DNA of 41,731 nucleotides from Candidatus Moraniibacteriota bacterium (lineage in GTDB: Bacteria > Patescibacteriota > Minisyncoccia > Moranbacterales > UBA9337): positions 1 to 41,731 of the forward strand of contig JAOUHN010000004.1 in NCBI GenBank assembly GCA_029865125.1, in the 5' to 3' direction. The notes beneath the pieces are model-generated. The model worked only from the letters and a program-made list of their open reading frames with translations, did no database searches and had not been told where the DNA came from. This document shows, in pieces, positions 1,512-14,248 of the stretch (position 1 is the first letter of the stretch; the number at the start of each line of letters is the position of its first letter). The position numbers and the translations under genes were made by a program.

Positions 1512-1931
1512 ATGAGTTATAAGAAGAAAATAAGAAATGTGGTGGTTGCATGTTTAATTGCGATTGTTGCTAGCTTGATTTTAGCATTGCCAGAAAATTT
1601 TGGATTGTGCTCCAAGAACGATGACGGATGTATTTATTGGTATATCGATACCTTTGATAATTTAGTGCAGTTTATATTTTATTTTGCACTTGCTATTATT
1701 TTTTCTTTGACTGGAGCATACTTTACAGGAGAGAAAGCTTTTAACGCATGGAAGAAATTTGCAATGATATATTTGTCAATTGCGATTATCCTGGTTTTGA
1801 TTTCACCAACAACTAACATGAACTTTGTTGGTTTTGACAAGGAGCTAACCACAATGTGGCTTGCTGGGATATTTTTTGTGGTGAGTTTGGGGATTATTTT
1901 GGGAAAGAGAGAAAAACAAAGTTCGATTTAA
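1512..1931 (+). CDS. Small 4-TM membrane protein, paralog A1 (putative immunity-like protein)
   Basis: Four hydrophobic segments, Cys pair in the first loop (GLCSKNDDGC), shared C-terminal ELTTMWLAGIFFVVSLGIILGKR; starts 10 bp after the lipase stop. Confidence 0.8.
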   Translation: MSYKKKIRNVVVACLIAIVASLILALPENFGLCSKNDDGCIYWYIDTFDNLVQFIFYFALAIIFSLTGAYFTGEKAFNAWKKFAMIYLSIAIILVLISPTTNMNFVGFDKELTTMWLAGIFFVVSLGIILGKREKQSSI

Positions 1932-1949
1932 AAGGATAAATAAAAAAGT

Positions 1950-2378
1950 ATGAAATCTAAAAAGAAAGAAAGTATTATATTGATGACATCTATTATTCTG
2001 TTCCTTATTGGATATGCGATAGTCTATCCTGAAAACATGGGTATATGTGATAGAAATAATGATGCATGTATTTATAGTATGCCAACTTTTACTATTGGTG
2101 AGCCACTTTTATTTGGGTCAATTTCTTTAGTGGTCGTTTCAATATTTTTATTTTTTACAAATAAAAAATCTTTTGACATTTGGAAGAAATTTTCAATAAT
2201 TTATCTTCCAATTGCAATCATATTGATTTTGATTACCCCAGTTACATCCGGAGGTCTTATAAATATAAACAAAGAACTAACCACAATGTGGCTTGCTGGG
2301 ATATTTTTTGTGGTGAGTTTGGGGATTATTTTCGGAAAAAGAGATCATCACAGCCCGCTTGATTTGGATGAATGCTAG
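1950..2378 (+). CDS. Small 4-TM membrane protein, paralog B
   Basis: Same topology, PENxGxC...C loop, WKKF motif and shared C-terminal block; tail DHHSPLDLDEC. Confidence 0.8.
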   Translation: MKSKKKESIILMTSIILFLIGYAIVYPENMGICDRNNDACIYSMPTFTIGEPLLFGSISLVVVSIFLFFTNKKSFDIWKKFSIIYLPIAIILILITPVTSGGLININKELTTMWLAGIFFVVSLGIIFGKRDHHSPLDLDEC

Positions 2379-2511
2379 AACGAGATTTGAGTCCGTCAGT
2401 TGACGGAGAGATTTGAGATAGAGAAACCAGATTGAGATCATGAAACAGCAATTTAAAAAAAAGAAAAAACATGACACCAGATGACGGCCGTCGGCTCGCG
2501 TCCTGTTTGAA
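2289..2511 (+). repeat. ~220-bp direct repeat, copy 1 (copy 2 at 2911-3133; partial copy at 4523-4612)
   Basis: Near-identical at offset 622. Covers the gene 3' end, the palindrome TCCGTCAGTTGACGGA, GAGATTT-like heptads and the 36-bp palindromic site. Confidence 0.95.
2473..2508. repeat. 36-bp imperfect palindrome, copy 1
   Basis: GACACCAGATGACGGCCGTCGGCTCGCGTCCTGTTT with a central perfect palindrome GACGGCCGTC. Confidence 0.95.
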
Positions 2512-2526
2512 GAAATAATTATTTAA

Positions 2527-2622
2527 GTGAAAAAAAGAAAAGACATTGAGAAACTGGGGATTTCTGAAGAAGAAATTGAGAATCTAATGAAAATTATTAA
2601 CAAAATTAATTTAAATATTTAA
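2527..2622 (+). pseudogene. Orphan fragment homologous to the last ~30 codons of the lipase gene
   Basis: Translates VKKRKDIEKLGISEEEIENLMKIINKINLNI* versus the lipase end VNKRNDIEKLGISEEEIDVLINIISKINN*; directly precedes paralog C. Confidence 0.85.
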
Positions 2623-2628
2623 AAATAT

Positions 2629-3000
2629 ATGAAAAATAAAAAGATTTTATTAAGTGCAGCAATAATTTTGAGTATTATTGCTGGAACGATTTATAAAAAT
2701 AGGTATTTTAATGATCTAGGGACATTTTTATTTTTGTTTTCCTTGGCGTTAATTATAATTTTTATTGTATTATATTTTGTGAAAAATGAAGGGGTATTTA
2801 AGATTTGGAGGAATTTTGCAGGGGTGTATTTATCGATTGCTATTATCTTGGCAGTGATTACTCCTGACACGCCTGGGTTTCTTCGTCCGGATAGTGAAAT
2901 TATATCACTTTGGCTTGCTGGAATATTTTTTGTGGTGAGTTTGGGGATTATTCTTGGAAAGAGAGATCATCACAGCCCGCTTGATTTGGATGAATGCTAG
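2629..3000 (+). CDS. Small 4-TM membrane protein, paralog C
   Basis: Hydrophobic segments, FKIWRNF motif, shared WLAGIFFVVSLGIILGKR block and DHHSPLDLDEC tail. Confidence 0.8.
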   Translation: MKNKKILLSAAIILSIIAGTIYKNRYFNDLGTFLFLFSLALIIIFIVLYFVKNEGVFKIWRNFAGVYLSIAIILAVITPDTPGFLRPDSEIISLWLAGIFFVVSLGIILGKRDHHSPLDLDEC

Positions 3001-3133
3001 AACGAGAATTGAGTCCGTCAGTTGACGGAGAGATTTGAGATAGAGAAACCAGATTGAGATCAGAAAATAGTAATTTAAAAAAAAGAAAAAACATGACACC
3101 AGATGACGGCCGTCGGCTCGTGTCCTGTTTGAA
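2911..3133 (+). repeat. ~220-bp direct repeat, copy 2
   Basis: Matches 2289-2511. Confidence 0.95.
3095..3130. repeat. 36-bp imperfect palindrome, copy 2
   Basis: GACACCAGATGACGGCCGTCGGCTCGTGTCCTGTTT, ending 8 bp before the PaaX-like ATG. Confidence 0.95.
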
Positions 3134-3138
3134 AGGAT

Positions 3139-3702
3139 ATGTATAGAATTGGACCAGTTCAAAAAAAGATCATAGTTACTCTTGTGGGAGGTGTGGTGTT
3201 AGGATCGACTTCATCTCCAAGGCAATATTTCAAGGTATTGCGTGAAATAAAAAGAGAGTGGAAAAACATTAATTCTAGAAGTTTTTCTCGTTCTATGCAA
3301 AGGCTTTCTCGTGAAAAACTAATTGAAAAGAAAATGCTTCCAAATGGAAATTTTAAGCTGGAGTTAACTAAAAAAGGAAAAAATGAAGCAAGAAAGCTGA
3401 GTTTATTGGGGAGTAGTGTTGCGTGCAAGAAGCCAAAAAAGTGGGATGGGAAATGGAGAATTGTTATTTTTGATATTCCTGAAAAAGATCGAATATTCAG
3501 AGGTATTTTGAGAGAACATTTGTATGAATTAAAATTTGCTAAATTGCAACAAAGTGTTTTTGTTTCTCCGCACCCCTTTGAGAGAGCTATTCTTGAATTG
3601 ACGAGGCTATATTCTGCTGAGCGCTATGTGCGAGTAATTACAGCTTTGAAAATTGACAACGAACAAGAAATTAAAAAGAAATTTCAAGGAATAATAAAGT
3701 AG
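3139..3702 (+). CDS. PaaX-like protein (winged HTH plus Cas2-like/ferredoxin-fold domain)
   Basis: wHTH-like RLSREKLIEK...LELTKKG followed by WDGKWRIVIFDIPE and LQQSVFVSP, characteristic of the PaaX central/Cas2-like domain common in CPR. Confidence 0.8.
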   Translation: MYRIGPVQKKIIVTLVGGVVLGSTSSPRQYFKVLREIKREWKNINSRSFSRSMQRLSREKLIEKKMLPNGNFKLELTKKGKNEARKLSLLGSSVACKKPKKWDGKWRIVIFDIPEKDRIFRGILREHLYELKFAKLQQSVFVSPHPFERAILELTRLYSAERYVRVITALKIDNEQEIKKKFQGIIK

Positions 3703-3738
3703 GACACCAGATGACGGCCGTCGGCTCATGTCCTGTTT
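3703..3738. repeat. 36-bp imperfect palindrome, copy 3
   Basis: GACACCAGATGACGGCCGTCGGCTCATGTCCTGTTT, starting immediately after the PaaX-like TAG stop. Confidence 0.95.
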
Positions 3739-3773
3739 TGAGAAGTAATAAAATTTATTAAACAATAAGGAAT

Positions 3774-4160
3774 ATGAATTATAAGAAAAAGATATTAATA
3801 ATGTTGCTAATATCTGTAATTACTGGAATTTTTTCTTTTGGTACCTGTTTATCTTTATCGACAAGACATTATTGCAGTCCAGGTGAATTTGAAGCAATAT
3901 TTAATTTTTTGGCCCTTTTCTCGATCGCTTTTGGCACTATTTCCATAGTATTATTATTTACTAAAGGAGCATTTGATAGTTGGAAGTTATTCGCAATTAT
4001 TTATTTGATTGTGTCCATATTTCTTGTATCTGTAACATCAAACATGGGTGGAATGTTGGGAATTGATAAAGAATTTGTTACAATGTGGCTTGCTGGGATA
4101 TTTTTTGTGGTGAGTTTGGGGATTATTCTGGGAAAGAGAGAAAAACAAAGTTCGCTTTAA
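3774..4160 (+). CDS. Small 4-TM membrane protein, paralog D
   Basis: Cys pair in the loop, AFDSWKLF motif, shared C-terminal block with tail EKQSSL. Confidence 0.8.
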   Translation: MNYKKKILIMLLISVITGIFSFGTCLSLSTRHYCSPGEFEAIFNFLALFSIAFGTISIVLLFTKGAFDSWKLFAIIYLIVSIFLVSVTSNMGGMLGIDKEFVTMWLAGIFFVVSLGIILGKREKQSSL

Positions 4161-4177
4161 AAGGATAAATAAAAAAT

Positions 4178-4612
4178 ATGAGTTATAAGAAGAAAATCAG
4201 AAATATAATAATTGCATGTTTAATTGCGATTGTTGCTAGCTTGGTTTTAGCATTGCCAGAAAATTTTGGATTATGTTCAAAGGGCGATACTGCTTGTGTT
4301 AGGAAATTCATTCACCGTTTTGATAATATAATACAGACAACGTTTTATTTTGCACTTGCTATTATTTTTTCTTTGACTGGAGCATACTTTACAGGAGAGA
4401 AAGCTTTTAACGCATGGAAGAAATTTGCAAGGATATATTTGCCAATTGCGATTGTTCTGGTTTTGATTTCACCAACAACTAACATGAACTTTGTTGGTTT
4501 TGACAAAGAACTAACCACAATGTGGCTTGCTGGGATATTTTTTGTGGTGAGTTTGGGGATTATTTTCGGAAAAAAAGATCATCACAGCCCGCTTGATTTG
4601 GATGAATGCTAG
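4178..4612 (+). CDS. Small 4-TM membrane protein, paralog A2 (near-duplicate of 1512-1931 with a divergent loop)
   Basis: Nearly identical to A1 except the loop segment and the C-terminal tail. Confidence 0.85.
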   Translation: MSYKKKIRNIIIACLIAIVASLVLALPENFGLCSKGDTACVRKFIHRFDNIIQTTFYFALAIIFSLTGAYFTGEKAFNAWKKFARIYLPIAIVLVLISPTTNMNFVGFDKELTTMWLAGIFFVVSLGIIFGKKDHHSPLDLDEC

Positions 4613-6622: not shown

Positions 6623-9025
6623 ATGAGAGATAATTACAATAAAAAGTTTTTGAGTAAATTGGCTGCACTAAATAATGAAGTTGCAAATAAGCAATTAGTC
6701 GTTGTTGCGGTTGAATTTAGGAAAATTGTTTCGAAGCTTAGAGATAATGATAAAATTTATGACACCCTGGATTTATTAGAGGAATTTGTACATAGGGCAA
6801 CGAAGCAAGCTTTTGAAATAATTGATTTGGTTATGGAAAATAAATATCCTACTAAGAAATATAAGTCTAAATTTGGGGAATATTCAGGGAAGAGTTATGA
6901 GGATTTAGTCTTGAAATGTGTGGGAATATTGGAAATAATTCGATATTATGATAAGGATATTTTTATGAAGCTGATTGATATTCAAGAAAGAGTTAAAAAA
7001 TATGAATCTGTTCAGAAGAAAATCAAGGAAGTTTTGGAGAAGTATTCTAAATATAACTACCATGCGATTAGCAATCCAAAAATAGGATATGGAGTGCAAA
7101 GGAAAATTCTTGATGAAATTTTGAAATGGACTCCTCAGCAAAAAAAGAAAATATTTGATTTGATTGAAATTGTAACTCGTGAGTTTTTGAAGAGTTCTTT
7201 TGAGGGAACTTCAATGAAGGATTATAATACCATGGTTTTTCAGAGAGGGTCTCTTGGCGTGAATAAGTTTTTGAAAAATATTCGAAGAGAAACGATTGAT
7301 ATGCTTGTGGAGATGTTTGAAGGTACTAGAAGTGAAAATGTAAAATTGAGAATATTGAATATTTTGAATGAGGCGACAAGAAAGCCTATGGAGGGATATG
7401 ATGACAAAATGGTTGAAATGGTTGAAGGTGATGTTGAATATCTTGTGAAAATTTATGATCAATTTGCGTTTGGAAAAAATGGTAAGATTTCAAGTTTTCC
7501 GATTGTTAAGGAGATAGAAGATAAGCTATATTTTTTGAAAAAGGCTTATGGAGAAAATATTCCCGAGATTGAATTACTGAAAAAAAGAATTAATGAAAGT
7601 GAAGAATATCAATTTTTGAAATTACTTGTTAAGGATCATAATGATTTGGCCATTAGTGAAAAAGACTTAAATGATGAGATAAAAGAGTTGGTTAATTCTA
7701 TTGATGAGGATGATTTGGGTAGATATTGTGATGCACTGGAGAAGTTATCCAGTTATGTCAAAAGGAGATTGATTGATGAATGGGAATTAAGTCATGCAAG
7801 GAAATTTTGTTTTGAATTAGCAAAGAATAAACCAGATTTAGCAGGTAAGATTTTGTCTGAAATTATTTTTAATGGAAAGGAATTGAATCATTTTGTGTCA
7901 CAGTTTTTGTGTGGTTTTCGTGCTGAAAATCATACAAGAGAATGGGATAAATTCATTGGGCCAATTGTTGATAAAAAAAACATTGAGATGCTAAAAGTTA
8001 TTCCTTGGTCAGTTTCTTGTATCGTGGAACATGTTGATAGGTATGTAAGAGAGAATGATATAAGGCTGTTGAATGATATCGTGAAGGGGAATAATAAATT
8101 TTCTTTCTTGAGGGATGTTAAGAATGATGTGAGTAAGACAAATTTCCATGTAATCTTAATTGAAGCGTTGGCTGTTATTTGGAAGAAGGATAAGAAGAGA
8201 ATTGAGAAAATAATTATTGAAGAATTGAAGCAGAATAGTGAGGATCAAGGTTGTATTTCTGCATTATTGAATAATTTGGATTTTTCTTCTTATAGGAAAG
8301 TTCTTGATCTTTTAGAATTTAGTGATGGAAATATAAAGTTTATTATTGGTTTATTGGTTGAAATAGATAAGTTGGATCATCGAATGCAGGAGTTGATGGT
8401 TATTCTTAGTGAAAAATATTATGAGAATGTCATGAATGTTTTCATGAAACGGATTAATAATCGACAAAATATGAAAGAAAAGGGCAATTATGAAGCAGTT
8501 CCATATCATTTCAATCAAGAGCTGAAAGAGGCTATTGTGAATGGAGAAGAATATGAAAAGTTTATGTTGGAGTGGATTGAGTTGGCAAAGAAAGGAAGTT
8601 ATATTTTTTGCATGGATACTGGAAGACTTTTGAGAAGAGTTGATGGAGTGAAAAAGGAATATATTTTGAAAGTTTTGGATAAGAATAGCACAGAAAAGGA
8701 AATTGAAAATATTTTGAAAATGTTTACTTTTGATGTTCCTGATTATGAAATTTTGATTGGGATTATAAAGATGACTGACAAGAAGGAGATCTGGGGAAAC
8801 ATTGAAGGTGTGTTGGCTCAAACAGGGGTTGTGTCTGGTGAGCATGGAATTTCAGATAGCTATAAGCGGAAGGTAAAAGATTTTGAGAAATATAAAAAGG
8901 ATAAGGATGAGAATGTCAAAAAGTTTGCTGAAGGATTTGTTGATAATATGAATCAAAGAGCTAAGGAGGAAAGAAAAAGAGAGGATGAAGAAATTGCGCT
9001 TCGAAAAATTGAATTTGAAGGGTGA
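6623..9025 (+). CDS. Large alpha-helical repeat protein, likely partner of the upstream ORF
   Basis: 800 aa, all-helical amphipathic pattern, 4-bp gap to the upstream gene. C-terminal GVVSGEHG...DENVKKFA...RAKEERKRE resembles tails of large REase-NTPase-helical proteins. Confidence 0.55.
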   Translation: MRDNYNKKFLSKLAALNNEVANKQLVVVAVEFRKIVSKLRDNDKIYDTLDLLEEFVHRATKQAFEIIDLVMENKYPTKKYKSKFGEYSGKSYEDLVLKCVGILEIIRYYDKDIFMKLIDIQERVKKYESVQKKIKEVLEKYSKYNYHAISNPKIGYGVQRKILDEILKWTPQQKKKIFDLIEIVTREFLKSSFEGTSMKDYNTMVFQRGSLGVNKFLKNIRRETIDMLVEMFEGTRSENVKLRILNILNEATRKPMEGYDDKMVEMVEGDVEYLVKIYDQFAFGKNGKISSFPIVKEIEDKLYFLKKAYGENIPEIELLKKRINESEEYQFLKLLVKDHNDLAISEKDLNDEIKELVNSIDEDDLGRYCDALEKLSSYVKRRLIDEWELSHARKFCFELAKNKPDLAGKILSEIIFNGKELNHFVSQFLCGFRAENHTREWDKFIGPIVDKKNIEMLKVIPWSVSCIVEHVDRYVRENDIRLLNDIVKGNNKFSFLRDVKNDVSKTNFHVILIEALAVIWKKDKKRIEKIIIEELKQNSEDQGCISALLNNLDFSSYRKVLDLLEFSDGNIKFIIGLLVEIDKLDHRMQELMVILSEKYYENVMNVFMKRINNRQNMKEKGNYEAVPYHFNQELKEAIVNGEEYEKFMLEWIELAKKGSYIFCMDTGRLLRRVDGVKKEYILKVLDKNSTEKEIENILKMFTFDVPDYEILIGIIKMTDKKEIWGNIEGVLAQTGVVSGEHGISDSYKRKVKDFEKYKKDKDENVKKFAEGFVDNMNQRAKEERKREDEEIALRKIEFEG

Positions 9026-9040
9026 TTTCAAGTAGTGCAG

Positions 9041-9108
9041 TGGTGGCAAAATCAAATCAAAAAAGTTCTCATTCCCAGGTTTTGGGTGGGGACTTTTTGT
9101 TTTTTGTG
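9041..9108. repeat. Intergenic repeat Y, copy 1 (hairpin, terminator-like)
   Basis: AAATCAAAAAAGTTCTCATTCCCAGGTTTTGGGTGGGGACTTTTTGTTT; other copies at 10511, 11498 and 12409. Confidence 0.9.
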
Positions 9109-9123
9109 GGGGGGGTGCAGTGC

Positions 9124-9201
9124 AAACCCTTCTTTAATTCCTCCCCTTGACCCGTCTTCATTGAGTGTTTCGCCGAGGCAAGATGGAAAGAGGAGGAGAT
9201 A
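9124..9201. repeat. REP-like repeat Z, copy 1
   Basis: Shares TCCTCCCCTTGACCCGTCT (19 bp identical), CGCCGAGG and a GGAAAG..GAGGAG..ATAC end with 35996-36076. Confidence 0.8.
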
Positions 9202-9252
9202 CACGAGTTTCAACGGCTCATACGAAAGTGGAGCGTTGTTTTGGCTTGAATC

Positions 9253-9281
9253 TTGACTTTTTTGTGGTTTTTAGATACTAT
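9253..9281 (+). promoter_or_regulatory. Sigma70-like promoter
   Basis: TTGACT-17 bp-TACTAT upstream of ORF 9341. Confidence 0.65.
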
Positions 9282-9340
9282 TATGAGTCCTGAAGAAGAG
9301 GTGGAATTTAACAAAAATTTGTTTCCAAGGAGAGATCGAA

Positions 9341-9679
9341 ATGGCTCAAGACAGTGATAACGCAATGTACCGAATGATCATTGACTACATCAATGGAATT
9401 CGCATGGTGCAAGATGAGCAACTCAACTCTTTCATTGAGGTGTTTGACAAGAGTGTTAATTGGTCAACAGAAGATGCTATTGTTGGCTCGGAGGGAGTGA
9501 AAGCAGCTCTTTCGCGTCCCATGACATTGAAAGAAATTGAAGAATTTTTTCGGAAGCAGACTAGTGCCGTGTGTGCCATCGTTGATCCGGAATTTGCCGG
9601 CACCAAAAATCAGTGCCTTGGAATTTTTATCAGGGCTCTAAATAAAGAGGATTTATTTTCTGAGCCAGTGCTGTTCTAG
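9341..9679 (+). CDS. Hypothetical protein
   Basis: Has its own promoter, an AAGGAG SD and a downstream hairpin; no recognisable motif. Confidence 0.7.
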   Translation: MAQDSDNAMYRMIIDYINGIRMVQDEQLNSFIEVFDKSVNWSTEDAIVGSEGVKAALSRPMTLKEIEEFFRKQTSAVCAIVDPEFAGTKNQCLGIFIRALNKEDLFSEPVLF

Positions 9680-9696
9680 GATATTTTCAGGATTAG

Positions 9697-9737
9697 GAGA
9701 CCTTTTGTAGCCCGAGTGTTGCAATGGGTCCCTTTTT
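9697..9737 (+). terminator. Putative intrinsic terminator
   Basis: GGAGACC...GGTCCC stem followed by a T-run. Confidence 0.5.
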
Positions 9738-9764
9738 ATTTCTAGCTTCGAATGGTTTTGAGTG

Positions 9765-9796
9765 AAATAAAAAGGATTAGGTATCTTTTTGATTTT
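9765..9796. repeat. Intergenic motif X, copy 1
   Basis: AAATAAAAAGGATTAGGTATCTTTTTGAT; related copies at 10478, 11411 and 12378. Confidence 0.7.
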
Positions 9797-9943
9797 TGCG
9801 ACATAATCTCTCATACATAGAATTATGATGCAAATCGTTCGTGATTCCTTGACAGTCTATTTGAAAAATGAGAGCATTTAGGAAGAACTTTTTGAATTTA
9901 ATTTTGCAGATTACTGATCATAAAACATAAGGGGAGGTAGTTT

Positions 9944-10396
9944 ATGTCCAATGCGGATTGCTTGGGAGGCATGTGTCGGCATTATGAAGGAATAGGATGT
10001 GCGATAATCAATCCAACTAAGGGCTTTCAGCTCTCCTTGAAAGAAGGAAAGGTTTTCGAGTATTGCTCTGGGAGAGATTCTTGTGGAAGATCTTTGGATT
10101 TCGGGACTGGCCGCACTTATTTGGTAGACAAATATAGTGGGAGATTACACAACTCCAGTGATTGGGATTCTGGTTGGATTGATTTCCTTGAAGAATCAAC
10201 CGGAAAAAATCTTTCGGAAACTGACAGGGGGTTTATTGATGCTCTCAGAAAGGAGTATGCAACGCCCGGAACTGAAATGCCAAGGTTTATGGTGATTGTA
10301 GAGAAATTTTCAAAAGAGCTGAAAGAATCCTCTTTTTCTGGCATTGAAGAAGTGCTCAAATGGGCAGGTCTTCCAGGTGTGTCTGGTGGCGGTTGA
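9944..10396 (+). CDS. Hypothetical protein with a Cys-rich N-terminus
   Basis: Strong SD (GGGGAGGT), TTGACA at 9849 and a downstream terminator. Confidence 0.7.
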   Translation: MSNADCLGGMCRHYEGIGCAIINPTKGFQLSLKEGKVFEYCSGRDSCGRSLDFGTGRTYLVDKYSGRLHNSSDWDSGWIDFLEESTGKNLSETDRGFIDALRKEYATPGTEMPRFMVIVEKFSKELKESSFSGIEEVLKWAGLPGVSGGG

Positions 10397-10435
10397 AGAG
10401 GTGTGTCTATAGTTCGCGAGGTTAGTGAATAGGAG

Positions 10436-10470
10436 CTGCCGGAGGAGAATACTTCTTCGGCAGTTTTTTT
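10436..10470 (+). terminator. Intrinsic terminator
   Basis: CTGCCGGAGGAG-aata-CTTCTTCGGCAG followed by T7. Confidence 0.75.
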
Positions 10471-10477
10471 ATTTCCT

Positions 10478-10630
10478 AAATAAAAAGTGTTCAGGTACCT
10501 TTTTGATCCACAGTGAAAAAATCAAAATCAAAAAAGTTCTCATTCAGGTTTTGGGTGGGGACTTTTTGTTTTTTGTGAAAGCTTAACTTTTGTTTCTTGG
10601 GGTGGTATGATTTAATTAGTTTGAGGTTTA
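10478..10630 (+). repeat. X + Y + promoter module upstream of the SDR gene
   Basis: X (10478-10507), Y (10511-10577), then TTAACTTTT...TGGTATGATTTAATTAGTTT; homologous to 12378-12524. Confidence 0.85.
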
Positions 10631-10655
10631 TTAAATTGTTAAATGAAAATGAATT

Positions 10656-11393
10656 ATGAAATTTGAAGATAAGATAGTTTTGGTTACTGGGGGTGGCAGA
10701 GGAATTGGAGCAGAGACAGCAAAGAACTTTGCGCGAGAAGGTGCTACTGTGATTATTAATTACGTTTCCGATGAAGATTCAGCAAAGAAAGTGCTTGATG
10801 ATATTGACGGGAAGGGTGAGATTGTGAAAGCTGATGTTAGTGATGAAGCGCAAGTGGATGAAATGTTTGAAAAAATTGAAAAGTCTTATAGTAAGATTGA
10901 CATTCTAGTGAATAGCGCAGGAATTGTTTCTCCTAAATCATTTGCAGAGCTTTCAGTGGGTGACTGGCGAAAAACTCATGCCGTTAATTTGGATTCTGTG
11001 TTTTTATGTTGCAAAAAAGCTGTACCTTTGATGAATAGTGGAGGATCTATAGTGAATGTCGCGTCAATAAGAGGGTTGTTTGATCAAGGGAGACCAGGAG
11101 TGATTGATTATTCAAGTTCAAAGGCAGCAGTGATCAGCTTCACAAAGACACTAGCAAAAGAAGTGGCTCCTGATATTAGGGTGAACTCAGTTTCTCCAGG
11201 GGTGACAAATACGGATATTGCTAAGGGATTTTCAAAGGAATTACTTGAAAAGTTTGTTGATGACATTTATTTGAGAAGGATCATTGAGCCTCAAGAAGTT
11301 GCAGATGCAATATTGTTTTTATCTTCCAAGGAAGCCAGTGCTATAACAGGTGTCAATTTAATGGTGGATGGTGGGCAAAGTCTGGGTAAGTAG
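10656..11393 (+). CDS. Short-chain dehydrogenase/reductase (FabG-like)
   Basis: TGGGRGIG, NSAG, YSSSK (YxxxK), RVNSVSPG and VDGG motifs. Confidence 0.95.
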   Translation: MKFEDKIVLVTGGGRGIGAETAKNFAREGATVIINYVSDEDSAKKVLDDIDGKGEIVKADVSDEAQVDEMFEKIEKSYSKIDILVNSAGIVSPKSFAELSVGDWRKTHAVNLDSVFLCCKKAVPLMNSGGSIVNVASIRGLFDQGRPGVIDYSSSKAAVISFTKTLAKEVAPDIRVNSVSPGVTNTDIAKGFSKELLEKFVDDIYLRRIIEPQEVADAILFLSSKEASAITGVNLMVDGGQSLGK

Positions 11394-11410
11394 TATGTTG
11401 CTAGTAATAG

Positions 11411-11438
11411 ATAAAAAAAGTCAGGCATCTTTTTGATT
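11411..11438. repeat. Intergenic motif X, copy 3
   Basis: ATAAAAAAAGTCAGGCATCTTTTTGATT. Confidence 0.7.
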
Positions 11439-11457
11439 AACTTGTGGTTATAGACAG

Positions 11458-11484
11458 GGATCCTGAATCAAGTTCAGGATGACA
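11458..11484. repeat. REP/MITE half element of the GTCAT-terminated family
   Basis: GGATCCTGAATCAAGTTCAGGATGACA hairpin; same GATGACA terminus as the element at 39459-39680. Confidence 0.7.
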
Positions 11485-11497
11485 AGGTAGTGGCGGA

Positions 11498-11560
11498 TGG
11501 TGGCAAAACCAAAATCAAAAAAGTTCTCATTCCCATGTTTGGGGTGGGGACTTTTGTTTG
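11498..11560. repeat. Intergenic repeat Y, copy 3
   Basis: TGGTGGCAAAACCAAAATCAAAAAAGTTCTCATTCCCATGTTTGGGGTGGGGACTTTTGTTT, followed by TATAAT at 11582. Confidence 0.9.
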
Positions 11561-11616
11561 CAACATTTCTTTTGAAAGGGGTATAATGAAGGAAAGGTAA
11601 ATTAAATTCAAGGAAT

Positions 11617-12378
11617 ATGAAAGCAGAAGAATTGGTTTTGATTGAAAAAGGAAATTTGGAGGTGGTGTTGGATGACAATAAAATTGTTTTGCCTGATTCA
11701 ATTCAAAAGGATATCGATGAGCATTGGGAGGGGTTGTTGAGAGATGGCAACAATTTCAAAAGAGGAGAGGTTTTCACAATCAAAAGTGTTGAAAAGAAAG
11801 ACAGAGGTACAGTTGTTGAATTGAGTGTTTCGGATTATGCTCACTATTTGTACACTCAAAGAGTTGGATTGGAAAACAAATATGCTTGCAAAAATTTGCA
11901 CACTTCATGCTTGATCGAAACATGCGATGAAAAACTTGTTTTTGGGAGAATGGGAAGACACACTGCCATGTCTGGAGTCATTCAATGTGCTGGAGGAGGT
12001 TTGGACAATGATGACATCAAGGGGAAGAATGTTGATTTGGAGAACAACATCAAAAGAGAATTGATGGAGGAGGTTGGAATTGAAGCAAAAAACAAAGAAA
12101 TCGTTGATGAGCTCAGAATCAAATATTTGAAATATAGTCTGGACACCAATAAGGTGGCAGCTATTTTTGTTTTGAAGTTGAAAATTGATTCGCAAGAATT
12201 TATGCGCTTGTACGACAGTTTTGAAAGTGATTGCAAAAAGAAAGGTGAGTTGCCTGAATTTGAAGAAATTGTGTGTTTGCCAAAAAACAGATCAGAAGTT
12301 GAGGAATTTGTTCAAAAAGAAAGGGATCATCTGAATCATTACATGGAAGTTTTGCTGAAAAGCGAGGCTTCAGAATGA
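11617..12378 (+). CDS. NUDIX-family hydrolase
   Basis: GGGLD...IKRELMEEVGI Nudix box with an insertion. Confidence 0.8.
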   Translation: MKAEELVLIEKGNLEVVLDDNKIVLPDSIQKDIDEHWEGLLRDGNNFKRGEVFTIKSVEKKDRGTVVELSVSDYAHYLYTQRVGLENKYACKNLHTSCLIETCDEKLVFGRMGRHTAMSGVIQCAGGGLDNDDIKGKNVDLENNIKRELMEEVGIEAKNKEIVDELRIKYLKYSLDTNKVAAIFVLKLKIDSQEFMRLYDSFESDCKKKGELPEFEEIVCLPKNRSEVEEFVQKERDHLNHYMEVLLKSEASE

Positions 12379-12524
12379 AACCAATGGGTTAGTTATCTTT
12401 TTGTTTAGCAGTGAAAAAATCAAACCAAAAAAGTCCTCATTTCAGTTTTTGGATGGGGCTTTTTGTTTTCTAGTCTTTAACTTTTATCCCTAAGGATGGT
12501 ATAATTGAATTAGTTTAGGGTAAT
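12378..12524 (+). repeat. X + Y + promoter module upstream of ORF 12542
   Basis: Degenerate X, then CAGTGAAAAAATCAAACCAAAAAAGTCCTCATT...GGATGGGGCTTTTTGTTT, then TTAACTTTT...TGGTATAATTGAATTAGTTT. Confidence 0.85.
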
Positions 12525-12541
12525 TATTGATTAGGGGGAAC

Positions 12542-13780
12542 ATGAAGATGATTAATGAAATCACAAGAAAAAACGTGGCAATCTGGGTGATTTTTGTTTT
12601 GATTTCTTTTGCTGTGAGCGGGGGAGTGTATTTTTTGGTTCAGAAAAACTCAAAAAACATTATTGAAGAATATGAACTTCGGATTAGTGAAGAAAAAGAA
12701 AGAGCGGAAAAGCTTGAGTTTGAGTTGGCTGTGAAAAAAGAGCAGGAGAGGGTGGCGGCACTGGAGAAGCAAAAACCGAAACTTGATCTTTTGCCACCTG
12801 ACATTGAAAGAATGAAAAGACAAGGGTGCATCACAGACGGACTCTTGAATGGATATAGTAAAGGAACGGAAGATGCAACTGAGTTGGTGAACAGATCTAG
12901 TTGCTATTATCTTCATCGAGCTGTTGAAACATGGTTAAAACCGCCTGATTTTAAGGATATTGAAGAGACAATGGGAAAGATAAAGAAGGATAGGAAAAAT
13001 TTGGTGTATGGAATGTTTATTGCAGAGGCAATTGACACAAAGGCAGATTATTTCTATGAAGCTGAGAACAGAGAGTTGGATTTTGGTGATATGTGCAGAC
13101 CGGGAAGCAAAAATGTTTGGGGGGAACACACTTGTAAGCCATCATTCAAAGAGAAGGAATATCGTTTGTATGTTTTGGACATCACAAAAAAAGCAATAGA
13201 CTTGGGAGTTCAAAGTTTCATGTTTGGTCAGGTTTTCTATCAAGACTATATCAATGATTCGCATATTGGAGAGGTGCTCAAAGAAATGCGGGCATATGCA
13301 AAGGCTAGAGAAGTTGAGATTGTGATCGGCGCTCAAACAAATGACATTGAAAATGAGGAATATTTGCGACAATTTGATTTCATTGAGGGGGGAGTGGGAA
13401 TAGACGCTGGAGGAAAAATTGAGAAGGGTCCATGTTTTTCTCGTTGGTGGAAAAAAGAAGGGGATTGGTGTTGGGCACTTCTTTGGAATGAAAAGTTTTC
13501 CAAAAAGGCGAACAATGTTTTGGTTCATTTGGACTGGAGTGGAGTGAAGGGTGACGACATGGGAATTTTTGCTGAAATGAGCCGAGAAAAAAGAGCTGAG
13601 ACTTTGAGGTATCTGGATGAATATTTCACAAAAAGAGACGTGGGATTTCTTTTTCCAATGGTCACCCCGCTATACAAGGAAAACGGAGGGTGTCACGGAA
13701 AATCAAGGAAATATTATTCAGCAAGCAACGAACATTCTTGCAAAGACGAGGACGTGATTAATGAATTGTTGGTGAAATAG
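12542..13780 (+). CDS. Membrane-anchored extracellular protein (TM, coiled coil, Cys/Trp-rich possibly glycoside-hydrolase-like domain)
   Basis: N-terminal TM, E/K-rich stalk, paired Cys and aromatic-rich domain. ATG at 12542 preferred over the TTG at 12527. Confidence 0.65.
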   Translation: MKMINEITRKNVAIWVIFVLISFAVSGGVYFLVQKNSKNIIEEYELRISEEKERAEKLEFELAVKKEQERVAALEKQKPKLDLLPPDIERMKRQGCITDGLLNGYSKGTEDATELVNRSSCYYLHRAVETWLKPPDFKDIEETMGKIKKDRKNLVYGMFIAEAIDTKADYFYEAENRELDFGDMCRPGSKNVWGEHTCKPSFKEKEYRLYVLDITKKAIDLGVQSFMFGQVFYQDYINDSHIGEVLKEMRAYAKAREVEIVIGAQTNDIENEEYLRQFDFIEGGVGIDAGGKIEKGPCFSRWWKKEGDWCWALLWNEKFSKKANNVLVHLDWSGVKGDDMGIFAEMSREKRAETLRYLDEYFTKRDVGFLFPMVTPLYKENGGCHGKSRKYYSASNEHSCKDEDVINELLVK

Positions 13781-13792
13781 TATTTTGAGAAC

Positions 13793-13821
13793 AAAAAAAG
13801 CACCTGTAAAAGGTGCTTTTT
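13793..13821. terminator. Bidirectional terminator-like hairpin
   Basis: AAAAAAGCACC-tgtaaa-AGGTGCTTTTT. Confidence 0.7.
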
Positions 13822-13862: not shown

Positions 13863-14010
13863 TGTTGGGTCGGAGGGATTCCTTTTCACCCATTACTCCT
13901 CGCTCTCCTGTCACTTGAGAGTGACAGGATCGCAGACTTGTAATTCCTTCAAAGCCGGGGTTTTCAAAAAAGCAAAATCGTTTGCTTTTTTGAAATACCC
14001 TTCGAATCCC
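13863..14010 (-). mobile_element. tRNA-linked structured element ending in a 19-bp duplicate of the tRNA-Gln 3' end
   Basis: TGTTGGGTCGGAGGGATTC at 13863-13881 equals 14067-14085. Internal hairpins TCCTGTCAC/GTGACAGGA and TTTCAAAAAAGCAAA/TTTGCTTTTTTGAAA are closed by GGGATTC/GAATCCC. Confidence 0.7.
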
Positions 14011-14027
14011 AGATCTCTAAAAAATAA

Positions 14028-14061
14028 AATCAAAAAACACCCCAAAGGGCGTTTCTTGATT
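14028..14061 (-). terminator. Terminator-like hairpin downstream of tRNA-Gln
   Basis: AATCAAAAAACACCC-caaa-GGGCGTTTCTTGATT. Confidence 0.65.
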
Positions 14062-14068
14062 TCACTTG

Positions 14069-14140
14069 TTGGGTCGGAGGGATTCGAACCCCCGGATGCT
14101 AGGACCAAAACCTAGTGCCTTACCGCTTGGCGACGACCCA
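14069..14140 (-). tRNA. tRNA-Gln (anticodon UUG), CCA not encoded
   Basis: Minus strand TGGGTCGTCGCCAAGCGGTAAGGCACTAGGTTTTGGTCCTAGCATCCGGGGGTTCGAATCCCTCCGACCCAA: 7-bp acceptor stem, CTAGG/CCTAG anticodon stem with TTG, TTCGAAT T-loop. Confidence 0.97.
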
Positions 14141-14190
14141 ATGTTATAAATTTTCAAATATTTTTTAGCTTCTTCTTTTTTGTTATTAAT

Positions 14191-14248
14191 GTGCCTTATC
14201 CGCCTCGGTGAGCCTCGGGCGAGACGGGCCGCTTGGCGACGACCCAAT
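14191..14248 (-). pseudogene. Duplicated 5' part of tRNA-Gln interrupted by a 30-bp insertion
   Basis: 14229-14248 equals 14123-14142 and 14191-14198 equals 14115-14122; the insert spans 14199-14228. Confidence 0.85.

Follow-up and report, generated by a model that had tools for sequence, protein, structure and literature searches.

The contig analysed here, 41,731 nucleotides of a Candidatus Moraniibacteriota bacterium (JAOUHN010000004.1, referred to below as the window), carries beside its tRNA-Gln gene an array of five co-oriented and unrelated genes that are separated by recurring intergenic repeats, i.e., X, of about 30 bp, and Y, a hairpin of about 60 bp present in four copies. We consider it probable that Y terminates the transcription of the preceding gene and that a promoter placed after Y restarts it for the following one. 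A wider interpretation, to which we give about even chances, is that these are locally spread terminator-promoter modules separating autonomous single-gene units, whose copies recombine with each other and may serve as cross-over points. The original prediction for this region, made from the letters of the DNA, had taken it for an integron-like gene-capture array; its description of the layout was reproduced, and its integron-like mechanism was not supported.

The window is the whole contig C47 of the assembly (G000; 1,026,567 bases in 72 contigs, 36.5% G+C, completeness 92%, contamination 2.6%). Its content is ordinary for a chromosome, including dnaX, mraZ, mraW, a penicillin-binding protein, Mur ligases, a signal peptidase, and HisRS. 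Gene occurrence was counted in 201 genomes sampled from the order, and the family comparison set comprised 22 genomes (this one and 21 others). The promoter and terminator scans covered a 5.6-kb region around the array, and all the promoter calls are consensus matches only. The spacers that contain Y1, Y2, Y3, and Y4 are labelled IG0, IG2, IG3, and IG4, respectively.

Organization of the array

The searches for open reading frames (ORFs), repeats, promoters, and terminators yielded the order Y-Z-P-orf9341-X-orf9944-term-X-Y-P-SDR-X-REP-Y-P-NUDIX-X-Y-P-orf12542, where P is a promoter-like site, term a terminator-like hairpin, and SDR a short-chain dehydrogenase/reductase gene. This agrees with the order originally described, and so do the four copies of Y, the four copies of X (the fourth one degenerate), the common + orientation of the five genes, and their lack of relatedness, since no pair of their proteins aligns at E < 0.3. 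The claim that neither repeat occurs in the 28 kb that follow was also borne out, because neither X nor Y recurs elsewhere on the contig at E < 0.01. The features of the region are the following.

6623..9025, + strand: 800-aa gene, left anchor of the array (ORF)
9036..9112, + strand: Y1, terminator-type hairpin module of subtype B (repeat search, profile, alignment, fold, covariance model)
9121..9225, no strand: Z, dispersed repeat (copies on other contigs)
9253..9281, + strand: promoter-like site before orf9341, TTGACT-17-TACTAT (consensus match only)
9341..9679, + strand: orf9341, 112 aa, orphan (no family match)
about 9765..9794, + strand: X1 (repeat and profile search)
9796..9823, + strand: promoter-like site before orf9944, TTGCGA-16-TAGAAT (consensus match only)
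9944..10396, + strand: orf9944, 150 aa, weak DsrC-like match (PF04358)
10431..10468, + strand: intrinsic-terminator-like hairpin of orf9944 itself, ahead of X2 and Y2 (17 pairs including 7 G-C, then a T-run)
about 10478..10507, + strand: X2 (repeat and profile search)
10504..10581, + strand: Y2, subtype A (repeat, profile, fold, terminator scan)
10583..10611, + strand: promoter-like site of subtype A, TTAACT-17-TATGAT with TG (consensus match; homologous to 12477-12505)
10656..11393, + strand: SDR, FabG-like (PF13561, NCBIfam)
about 11409..11438, + strand: X3 (repeat and profile search)
11457..11486, no strand: REP, dispersed palindrome, an insertion between X3 and Y3 (copies on multiple contigs)
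11493..11568, + strand: Y3, subtype B (repeat, profile, fold, terminator scan)
11558..11587, + strand: promoter-like site, TTGCAA-18-TATAAT, 10 of 12 consensus positions (consensus match)
11617..12378, + strand: NUDIX-like gene, 253 aa (weak PF00293)
about 12379..12406, + strand: X4, degenerate, with the end of the NUDIX-like gene in place of its 5' half (repeat and profile search)
12403..12478, + strand: Y4, subtype A (repeat, profile, fold, terminator scan)
12477..12505, + strand: promoter-like site of subtype A, TTAACT-17-TATAAT with TG (consensus match)
12542..13780, + strand: orf12542, membrane-anchored TIM-barrel, glycoside-hydrolase-like protein (family-wide homologues)
13795..13821, no strand: terminator-like hairpin closing the array (the terminator scan lists the - strand; the palindrome is nearly perfect, and A- and T-runs flank it on either side)
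13863..13881, + strand: 19-nt copy of the tRNA-Gln 3' end (equals 14067-14085)
14068..14140, - strand: tRNA-Gln (TTG) (tRNA search)

The Y hairpin and the promoter-like sites

The alignment of the four Y copies has a mean column identity of 81%, and the copies are 71-100% identical over 56 nt. The + strand of Y, read as RNA, forms a single long hairpin with an A-run before it and a U-run after it; its 14-16 pairs include 4-5 G-U pairs. In windows of 76-78 nt this fold reaches -12.8 to -26 kcal/mol on the + strand vs -7.5 to -11.8 kcal/mol on the - strand, where the z-scores are near zero, and standard pairs occupy 94.6% of the pair cells. Folded as DNA, Y is weak on both strands (-5.6 to -8.4 kcal/mol for the top one and -2.3 to -5.4 kcal/mol for the bottom one). 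The strand-specific RNA fold together with the U-run therefore gives Y the anatomy of an intrinsic terminator, unlike that of a site recombining as single-stranded DNA. The terminator scan detected 8 sites in the region vs 3.6 ± 1.9 in shuffled sequences, and its list includes Y2, Y3, Y4, the hairpin of orf9944, and the hairpin that closes the array. Y has no family match in Rfam.

There is a promoter-like site in each of the five spacers, and the last three of these sites begin 0-10 nt past the Y core, two of them with an extended -10 element. The original prediction regarded the genes as self-contained expression units; a promoter-like site per spacer and the terminator-like hairpins are in line with this idea, at the level of consensus matches only.

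On the interpretation that we favour, the region would be a plastic accessory stretch of a small chromosome in which five unrelated genes are expressed separately. The RNA hairpin and the U-run of Y would stop the transcription coming from the left, and a sigma-70-type promoter with a short leader, located within about 30 nt of Y, would restart it for the next gene. The copies would stem from duplication in place and from exchange between spacers, through homologous recombination or gene conversion rather than a site-specific recombinase, and their shared homology would provide cross-over points at which single-gene units could be inserted, lost, or exchanged, as in the promoter-early stem-loop (PeSL) cassettes. 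We infer the terminator and promoter activities, and the shuffling of genes at the modules, from sequence features.

Distribution of the Y, X, REP, and Z repeats

Y was found to be confined to the array. A profile search of the whole genome recovered the four copies at E = 4.8e-20 to 6e-18, the next match having E = 0.021. With a covariance model the four true copies score 75-95 bits, and only one of the 22 family genomes, the own one, contains strong matches. The four other matches of this model (E of at least 5e-4, 35-40 bits; three in other family genomes and one on contig C44 of the own genome) are generic A-tract/stem/U-tract hairpins in the alignments inspected. Public genome, metagenome, and viral contigs, in collections that may lack near-identical records, were scanned for exact matches to a degenerate pattern that fits all four copies and contain 5, 5, and 4 matches, respectively, all of them isolated; the ten from genome and metagenome contigs reached at most 32.7 bits when they were re-scored, and resemble Y in terminator shape only. 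Near the homologues of the array genes, at 14 loci of other genomes, the best match to Y had E = 0.012.

X is a low-copy dispersed repeat that tends to sit right after genes. The whole-genome profile search found the array copies at E = 1.3e-5 to 7.8e-5, and the 18-nt core of X also occurs, with at most 2 mismatches, on contigs C2, C50, C1, and C60, with a weaker copy on C69; those inspected, on C2 and C50, are located directly after the end of a gene. At 4 mismatches, matches to X are no commoner than in shuffled sequence. In three spacers X stands directly before Y, and in 3 of 9 cases it is followed by REP. The possibility that X itself is a terminator was rejected, its RNA hairpins reaching just -2.9 to -7.7 kcal/mol. 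The original prediction had proposed to scan the genome and its relatives with models of both repeats, and had named dispersal of the repeats and a conserved gene order as evidence that would speak against gene capture. Such scans place Y in the array only and X also elsewhere in the genome, so that dispersal applies in part to X and not to Y, and the gene order is not conserved either at the four relatives' loci examined.

REP has dozens of 90-100% identical matches on many contigs and belongs to a family of 199 members on 48 contigs. Z is a repeat of about 100 nt with other copies at C27:1849-1958, C16:1347-1427, C44:12016-12104, and C47:35997-36070, and had no match in Rfam.

Homology between spacers and a mosaic copy of Y

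IG2 and IG4 are alike over X, Y, the promoter, and the leader, and their alignment stops only shortly ahead of the start codons (10484-10653 vs 12383-12546); in blastn the identity is 74% over 176 nt (E = 8e-20). The promoter-leader segment of these spacers is found at these two sites only in the whole genome. IG0 and IG3 have in common about 25 nt upstream of Y, up to the right edge of REP, and nothing downstream of it; the homology of Y1 to IG3 begins at 9019, in the stop-codon region of the 800-aa gene. These differences in spacer homology led us to distinguish two subtypes, A (IG2 and IG4) and B (IG0 and IG3). The common segments end at different points in different spacer pairs.

Y1 has a mosaic structure, closest to Y3 on the left and to Y2 on the right. 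Its left half has 3/37 differences from Y3 and 8/37 from Y2, and its right half has 0/33 differences from Y2 and 11/33 from Y3 (Fisher p = 0.006 and 0.015, with a split point picked after viewing the alignment). Transposition and site-specific recombination leave fixed ends, and thus the variable end points and the mosaic copy point to homologous recombination or gene conversion between the spacers.

These observations bear on the alternative that fares best, although we regard it as unlikely, i.e., that Y, with or without X, is a non-autonomous miniature transposable element, equipped with a terminator and an outward promoter and inserted into pre-existing spacers, like the Correia elements of Neisseria. 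The Y core is indeed a long imperfect palindrome of about 66 nt that pairs A-rich and T-rich ends, in a genome rich in small mobile-looking repeats such as REP, Z, and X, and REP is inserted between X3 and Y3. However, the four copies of Y lie within 3.4 kb and in one orientation, with none dispersed, they have no fixed ends in common, as the extent of the homology varies by pair, and no target-site duplication was seen when the flanks of the four-copy core were read. Moreover, the 92%-complete genome has no match to the HUH-type Y1 transposase family (PF01797), for which 6 of 14 control genomes were positive; DDE transposases were not searched for. The Y1 result also speaks against a hairpin element of the REP/RAYT or IS200/IS605 type, which would go with such a transposase.

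Genes of the array and its left flank

The four genes located upstream of the conserved orf12542 are accessory, two of them being detected in this genome only or almost so and the other two patchy in the order. The orf9341 gene, for which no family match was found, is present in only 1 of the 201 order genomes, i.e., the own one. The orf9944 protein matches PF04358 with 25.7 bits, just above the cut-off of 24.9, and is found in 2 of the 201 genomes, the second match being weak (E = 5e-6). The SDR protein, which matches PF13561 at 1.4e-69 and NCBIfam models too, occurs in 49 of the 201 genomes (E <= 1e-30), and its best relatives, with 52-54% identity, belong to another family of the order. The NUDIX-like protein scores 17.5 bits against PF00293, below the cut-off, and is encoded in 33 of the 201 genomes; other families supply its best matches (51% identity), a match exists in 4 of 21 genomes of its own family, and no relatives were found in the viral contigs searched.

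The orf12542 gene shows 67-74% DNA identity in many family genomes, and its product has 63-70% aa identity at the four relatives' loci that were fetched. The gene order around it is not kept at these four loci, where none of the other 23 window proteins tested gave a match. In genus g7, a distance of 15-23 kb separates orf12542 from tRNA-Gln and dnaX, and in a genome of another genus (G002) an unrelated 389-aa gene is found on the left of tRNA-Gln. The Atlas (language-model) neighbours of the orf12542 protein are hypothetical proteins that come most often from Candidatus Moraniibacteriota; folds of the GHL10 and melibiase-like kinds are to be taken as leads only. The G+C content at third codon positions (GC3) is 0.39-0.45 in 4 of the 5 array genes, the mean of 447 long ORFs being 0.327 ± 0.056, and only orf9341 is extreme (0.45, within the top 1.6% of long ORFs).

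The 800-aa gene that bounds the array on the left has no match in Pfam, NCBIfam, or PHROG. A homologue with 57% aa identity is located on contig C19 of G002 beside the same M23 peptidase gene, followed by other small genes and nusA, and the only repeats in this downstream flank are coding ones. A prophage was considered for the left flank of the array and rejected, since only the M23 peptidase matches phage endolysin families, with a weak holin-like match below the cut-off and no structural or integrase genes. A defence island was discarded as well, because PADLOC gave no match for the 7 proteins submitted. Further to the left, positions 1512-4612 of the window contain a tandem run of five paralogues that encode small membrane proteins (139, 142, 123, 128, and 144 aa) with near-identical C-termini; the segments 2289-2511 and 2911-3133, which span a gene end and a spacer, are 95.5% identical over 223 nt and have more copies on contig C23.

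The tRNA-Gln flank

The original prediction placed the end of the array at a duplicate of the tRNA-Gln 3' end. The 19-nt copy does exist, and the exact pair that it forms (13863-13881 and 14067-14085) brackets an insert of 185 bp on the right of the array, leaving the array itself outside. On contig C21, which holds the paralogous tRNA-Gln(CTG), the equivalent flank adjoins the tRNA with nothing in between. A whole-genome search with this 19-mer, counting matches of 16/19 or better, returned a single site beyond the tRNA-Gln genes and the 13863 copy. This site, 9481-9499, is on the same strand and inside orf9341, and may be due to chance or may be the relic of an old attachment site.

Several small features are associated with this flank. 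The insert (13882-14066) contains a palindrome with 20-nt arms at 13957-14000 and has no match in Rfam. The segment 13945-14029 is multi-copy and 84-88% identical in other genera, more conserved than protein genes. Just upstream of tRNA-Gln (14183-14248, - strand) there is a piece resembling the 5' part of tRNA-Gln, into which a GC-rich hairpin is inserted. At two loci outside the window (G000:C21:6779-7174 and G002:C35, L031 1611-2056) a small ORF, GIY-YIG-like by eye, lies between a tRNA-Gln-like piece and the tRNA, which is not so in the window.

It could be argued that the array is what is left of a decayed element integrated at the 3' end of tRNA-Gln, with the genes as cargo and the repeats as incidental, an explanation that we judge improbable, although it is compatible with the modular interpretation. 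The position of the array next to tRNA-Gln, the exact 3'-end copy, the 16/19 match within the array on the same strand, and the raised GC3 of 4 of the 5 genes would fit this explanation, and so would a second array of this genome, on contig C60, which begins beside a tRNA-Gly (see below). Against it, the exact pair encloses only 185 bp with the array outside, the 16/19 match sits inside a gene, there is no integrase on the contig, and orf12542 is a family-wide gene. The four Y copies and the duplicated promoter-leader would also be left without an explanation.

Shared regulation as an unlikely source of the similarity

The likeness of the spacers might reflect shared regulation rather than common descent or shuffling, with the repeats acting as the operator of one regulator, as an attenuator formed by pairing of the 3' half of X with the 5' half of Y, or as a boxA/boxB-type antitermination leader, which we hold to be hardly probable. 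Complementarity between the 3' part of X (CTTTTTGAT) and the A-rich 5' side of Y, as read by eye, makes alternative pairings possible, but the minimum-free-energy folds of X plus Y retain the Y hairpin. The predicted promoters are downstream of Y, which thus does not belong to the leader of the following gene. In addition, function leaves the sequence of a terminator stem and loop free, and yet the four copies of Y are as similar as described above. A boxA-type leader was rejected for the array, as the motif TTCTTTGAAAA of the 16S-23S spacer of this genome, which looks boxA-like, is absent from every array spacer even when one mismatch is allowed, and has 13 matches in the window vs 10.9 expected. 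In that 16S-23S spacer (G000:C71; L064 3260-3345), the 16S gene is followed by a hairpin with a T-run, a TTGACT/TAGTAT promoter-like site, and then TTCTTTGAAAA, i.e., what looks like another stop-and-restart junction.

Recombinases and the integron interpretation

As originally stated, the window lacks a recombinase, no tyrosine recombinase being encoded on this contig. The linked tyrosine recombinase or Y1 transposase gene that the original prediction suggested to look for was not found on it either. The tyrosine recombinase family PF00589 appears at one place of the genome, on contig C59, and this protein resembles XerD (253 bits) and XerC (247 bits), scoring 124 bits against the integron-integrase model TIGR02249 (cut-off 265) and 76 bits against NF011946 (cut-off 435). 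The lone serine recombinase, a large one, is encoded on C32. In integrons, attC sites have the core motifs RYYYAAC ... GTTRRRY and recombine as a folded bottom strand. A regular-expression search of the window for attC-type core pairs returned one pair within the array, at 10581-10644, in the promoter region of IG2 and not at X or Y.

It is true that co-oriented unrelated accessory genes are parted here by recurring imperfect palindromes, that each of the four upstream genes has X at its end, that four units begin with Y, and that X4 is cut short exactly at the stop codon of the NUDIX-like gene, but an integron-like array, with X and Y as the recombination site of circular cassettes and the recombinase encoded elsewhere, is very improbable, given an Xer-like enzyme well below the cut-offs as the only tyrosine recombinase of the genome, a serine recombinase on C32 only, the lack of a core pair in X or Y, a Y bottom strand that folds poorly as DNA, the Y hairpin being a strand-specific one of RNA type, a promoter-like site per unit, unlike typical cassettes, the occurrence of X at five other loci without Y, the variable ends of the repeats, and the homology of IG2 and IG4 across the whole spacer. 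Every testable integron feature fails, and hence we do not consider the array a member of the integron family.

Similar arrays elsewhere

The comparison of the genome with itself revealed many local repeats, and the same architecture, built from other sequences, appears at two further places, so it recurs but is not universal. On contig C60 of this genome (12320-17945; L051, L058), six copies of one terminator hairpin are found within 5.6 kb among co-oriented small genes, mostly without a family match; the flanks of the hairpin occur in 2-4 copies and a promoter segment is repeated. This array begins just after tRNA-Gly(TCC). In G002 (contig C2), one terminator occurs three times around the orf12542 homologue, in a stretch of 4.7 kb and nowhere else in that genome, and a promoter segment of the TTGACA/TATAAT type occurs four times there; two genes without detectable mutual similarity are framed by both repeats.

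Between tRNA-Gly and the C60 array, at 12222-12314, there is an element of about 90 nt, with a terminator behind it, whose counterparts in several genera share 84-91% identity; it has further copies in the own genome (C3:65860-65948 and C29:9676-9768) and may be a small RNA gene. Elsewhere on C29 (35336-38269), about 3 kb consist of long direct repeats with units of 140-540 nt, and no ORF of at least 90 aa exists between 33836 and 37970.

Evidence that weighs against the modular interpretation

Several observations weigh against the interpretation that we favour. The nearest available relative belongs to another genus, and gene movement at the modules is a proposal only. All six proteins looked up are singletons at 90% identity in a collection of 15 billion proteins. 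The single public run with this DNA (perhaps the source sample, and represented by its contigs only) has contigs that break at Y1, Y2, and REP; its lone contig joint, from 11484 to 13817, with a shorter side of 26 nt, begins within REP, and because REP is a dispersed repeat we did not take this joint for a deletion form of the array. The number of promoter-like sites (13 vs 11.9 ± 3.5 in shuffled sequences of the region) is not above chance, so the argument depends on their placement and not on their number. No pair of the Y stem has changed on both sides among the four copies, which are too alike for covariation to be informative. X is assigned no role in the modular interpretation. The loci of the orf12542 homologue in three family genomes (G017, G006, and G001) have no repeated modules, and therefore this architecture is not general in the family. 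Finally, PeSLs are known from phages with very active recombination, and a cellular chromosome may differ in this respect.

Possible significance

We tentatively propose, as a possibility rather than as an expectation, that in ultra-small, Moranbacteria-type chromosomes of the candidate phyla radiation such modules could act as portable homology for the capture, duplication, and exchange of single-gene units by homologous recombination, possibly after DNA uptake. Each plastic locus would have its own module family, as at the Y array, C60, and the C2 contig of G002, and cells would thereby possess a recombinase-free equivalent of PeSL shuffling, able to serve the function of integrons. If the modules are cross-over points, they would offer genome-reduced uncultured bacteria with few mobile-element enzymes a simple route to acquire, insulate, and immediately express accessory genes, and arrays of this kind would mark where the strain-specific genes sit. 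For annotation, it is relevant that such arrays resemble integrons and yet appear to be regulatory repeats. As it stands, the array adds one case to the known reuse of promoters and terminators, its host being unusual and its mobility only a proposal. In a limited literature search, the work on PeSLs concerned phages only, and none was found on such arrays in genomes of the candidate phyla radiation.

Comparison with known systems

Integrons consist of an IntI integrase, attC sites, and mostly promoterless cassettes that are read from a common promoter. The array resembles them in its co-oriented unrelated genes parted by imperfect palindromes and differs from them in having neither IntI nor an attC core pair at the repeats, and in having a promoter-like site per unit and a strand-specific RNA-type hairpin. 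Phage morons are independent promoter-gene-terminator units that are not known to have homologous promoters or terminators in common. The units of the array are likewise self-contained, with promoter-like and terminator-like signals, and contain accessory genes with raised GC3, but its modules share homology and no prophage genes were identified beside it.

Correia elements are among the systems named by Nijveen et al. (2012; PMC3575422). They and other miniature inverted-repeat transposable elements that bear promoters or terminators are small palindromic intergenic repeats, and Y is similar to them in possibly providing both termination and promotion; it differs in not being dispersed, in lacking fixed ends, and in that no target duplication was seen. 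Nijveen et al. also give the test for putative mobile promoters (PMPs) of Matus-Garcia, Nijveen, and van Passel (2012), as an identity of 80% or more across 50 nt or more, in the interval from -150 to -50 relative to the start codons of non-homologous genes. Y2 and Y3 are 90.2% identical over 51 nt and Y2 and Y4 are 88.9% identical over 63 nt, and Y2, Y3, and Y4 are located within -150 to -50 of the start codons of SDR, the NUDIX-like gene, and orf12542, respectively, so the array qualifies under this operational test. PMPs are an operational class without a mechanism, however, whereas the conserved part of the array is mainly a terminator hairpin and its copies are clustered in tandem units.

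The PeSLs of T4-type phages, as described by Arbiol et al. (2010; PMC2839356) and Comeau et al. (2014; PMC4122927), fill the interval between the preceding stop codon and the following start codon and comprise an AT-rich stretch, a sigma-70-like promoter, a transcription-terminating stem-loop with G-T pairs, and a Shine-Dalgarno sequence. According to these papers, they are mostly found before orphan genes in hyperplastic regions, and recombination between them gives rise to insertions, deletions, replacements, and mini-circles. The array differs from them in being part of a bacterial chromosome and not of a T4-type phage, in having only four copies of one specific hairpin sequence, and in the extra repeat X that stands before the hairpin; moreover, gene swapping and mini-circles have been shown for PeSLs, whereas gene exchange at the array is a proposal. 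The location of the array hairpin upstream of the -35 box corresponds to one of the five PeSL subclasses. The genes preceded by Y are also of a comparable kind, since orf9341, SDR, and the NUDIX-like gene are orphan or patchy; orf12542 is a conserved gene of the family, although its neighbours differ at the four relatives' loci examined. The array resembles PeSLs in its stop-to-start intergenic module, which joins a terminator-like stem-loop with G-T/G-U pairs to a putative sigma-70-type promoter, in the repetition of this module among small, non-essential, and often orphan genes of a plastic region, and in the signs of recombination between its copies.

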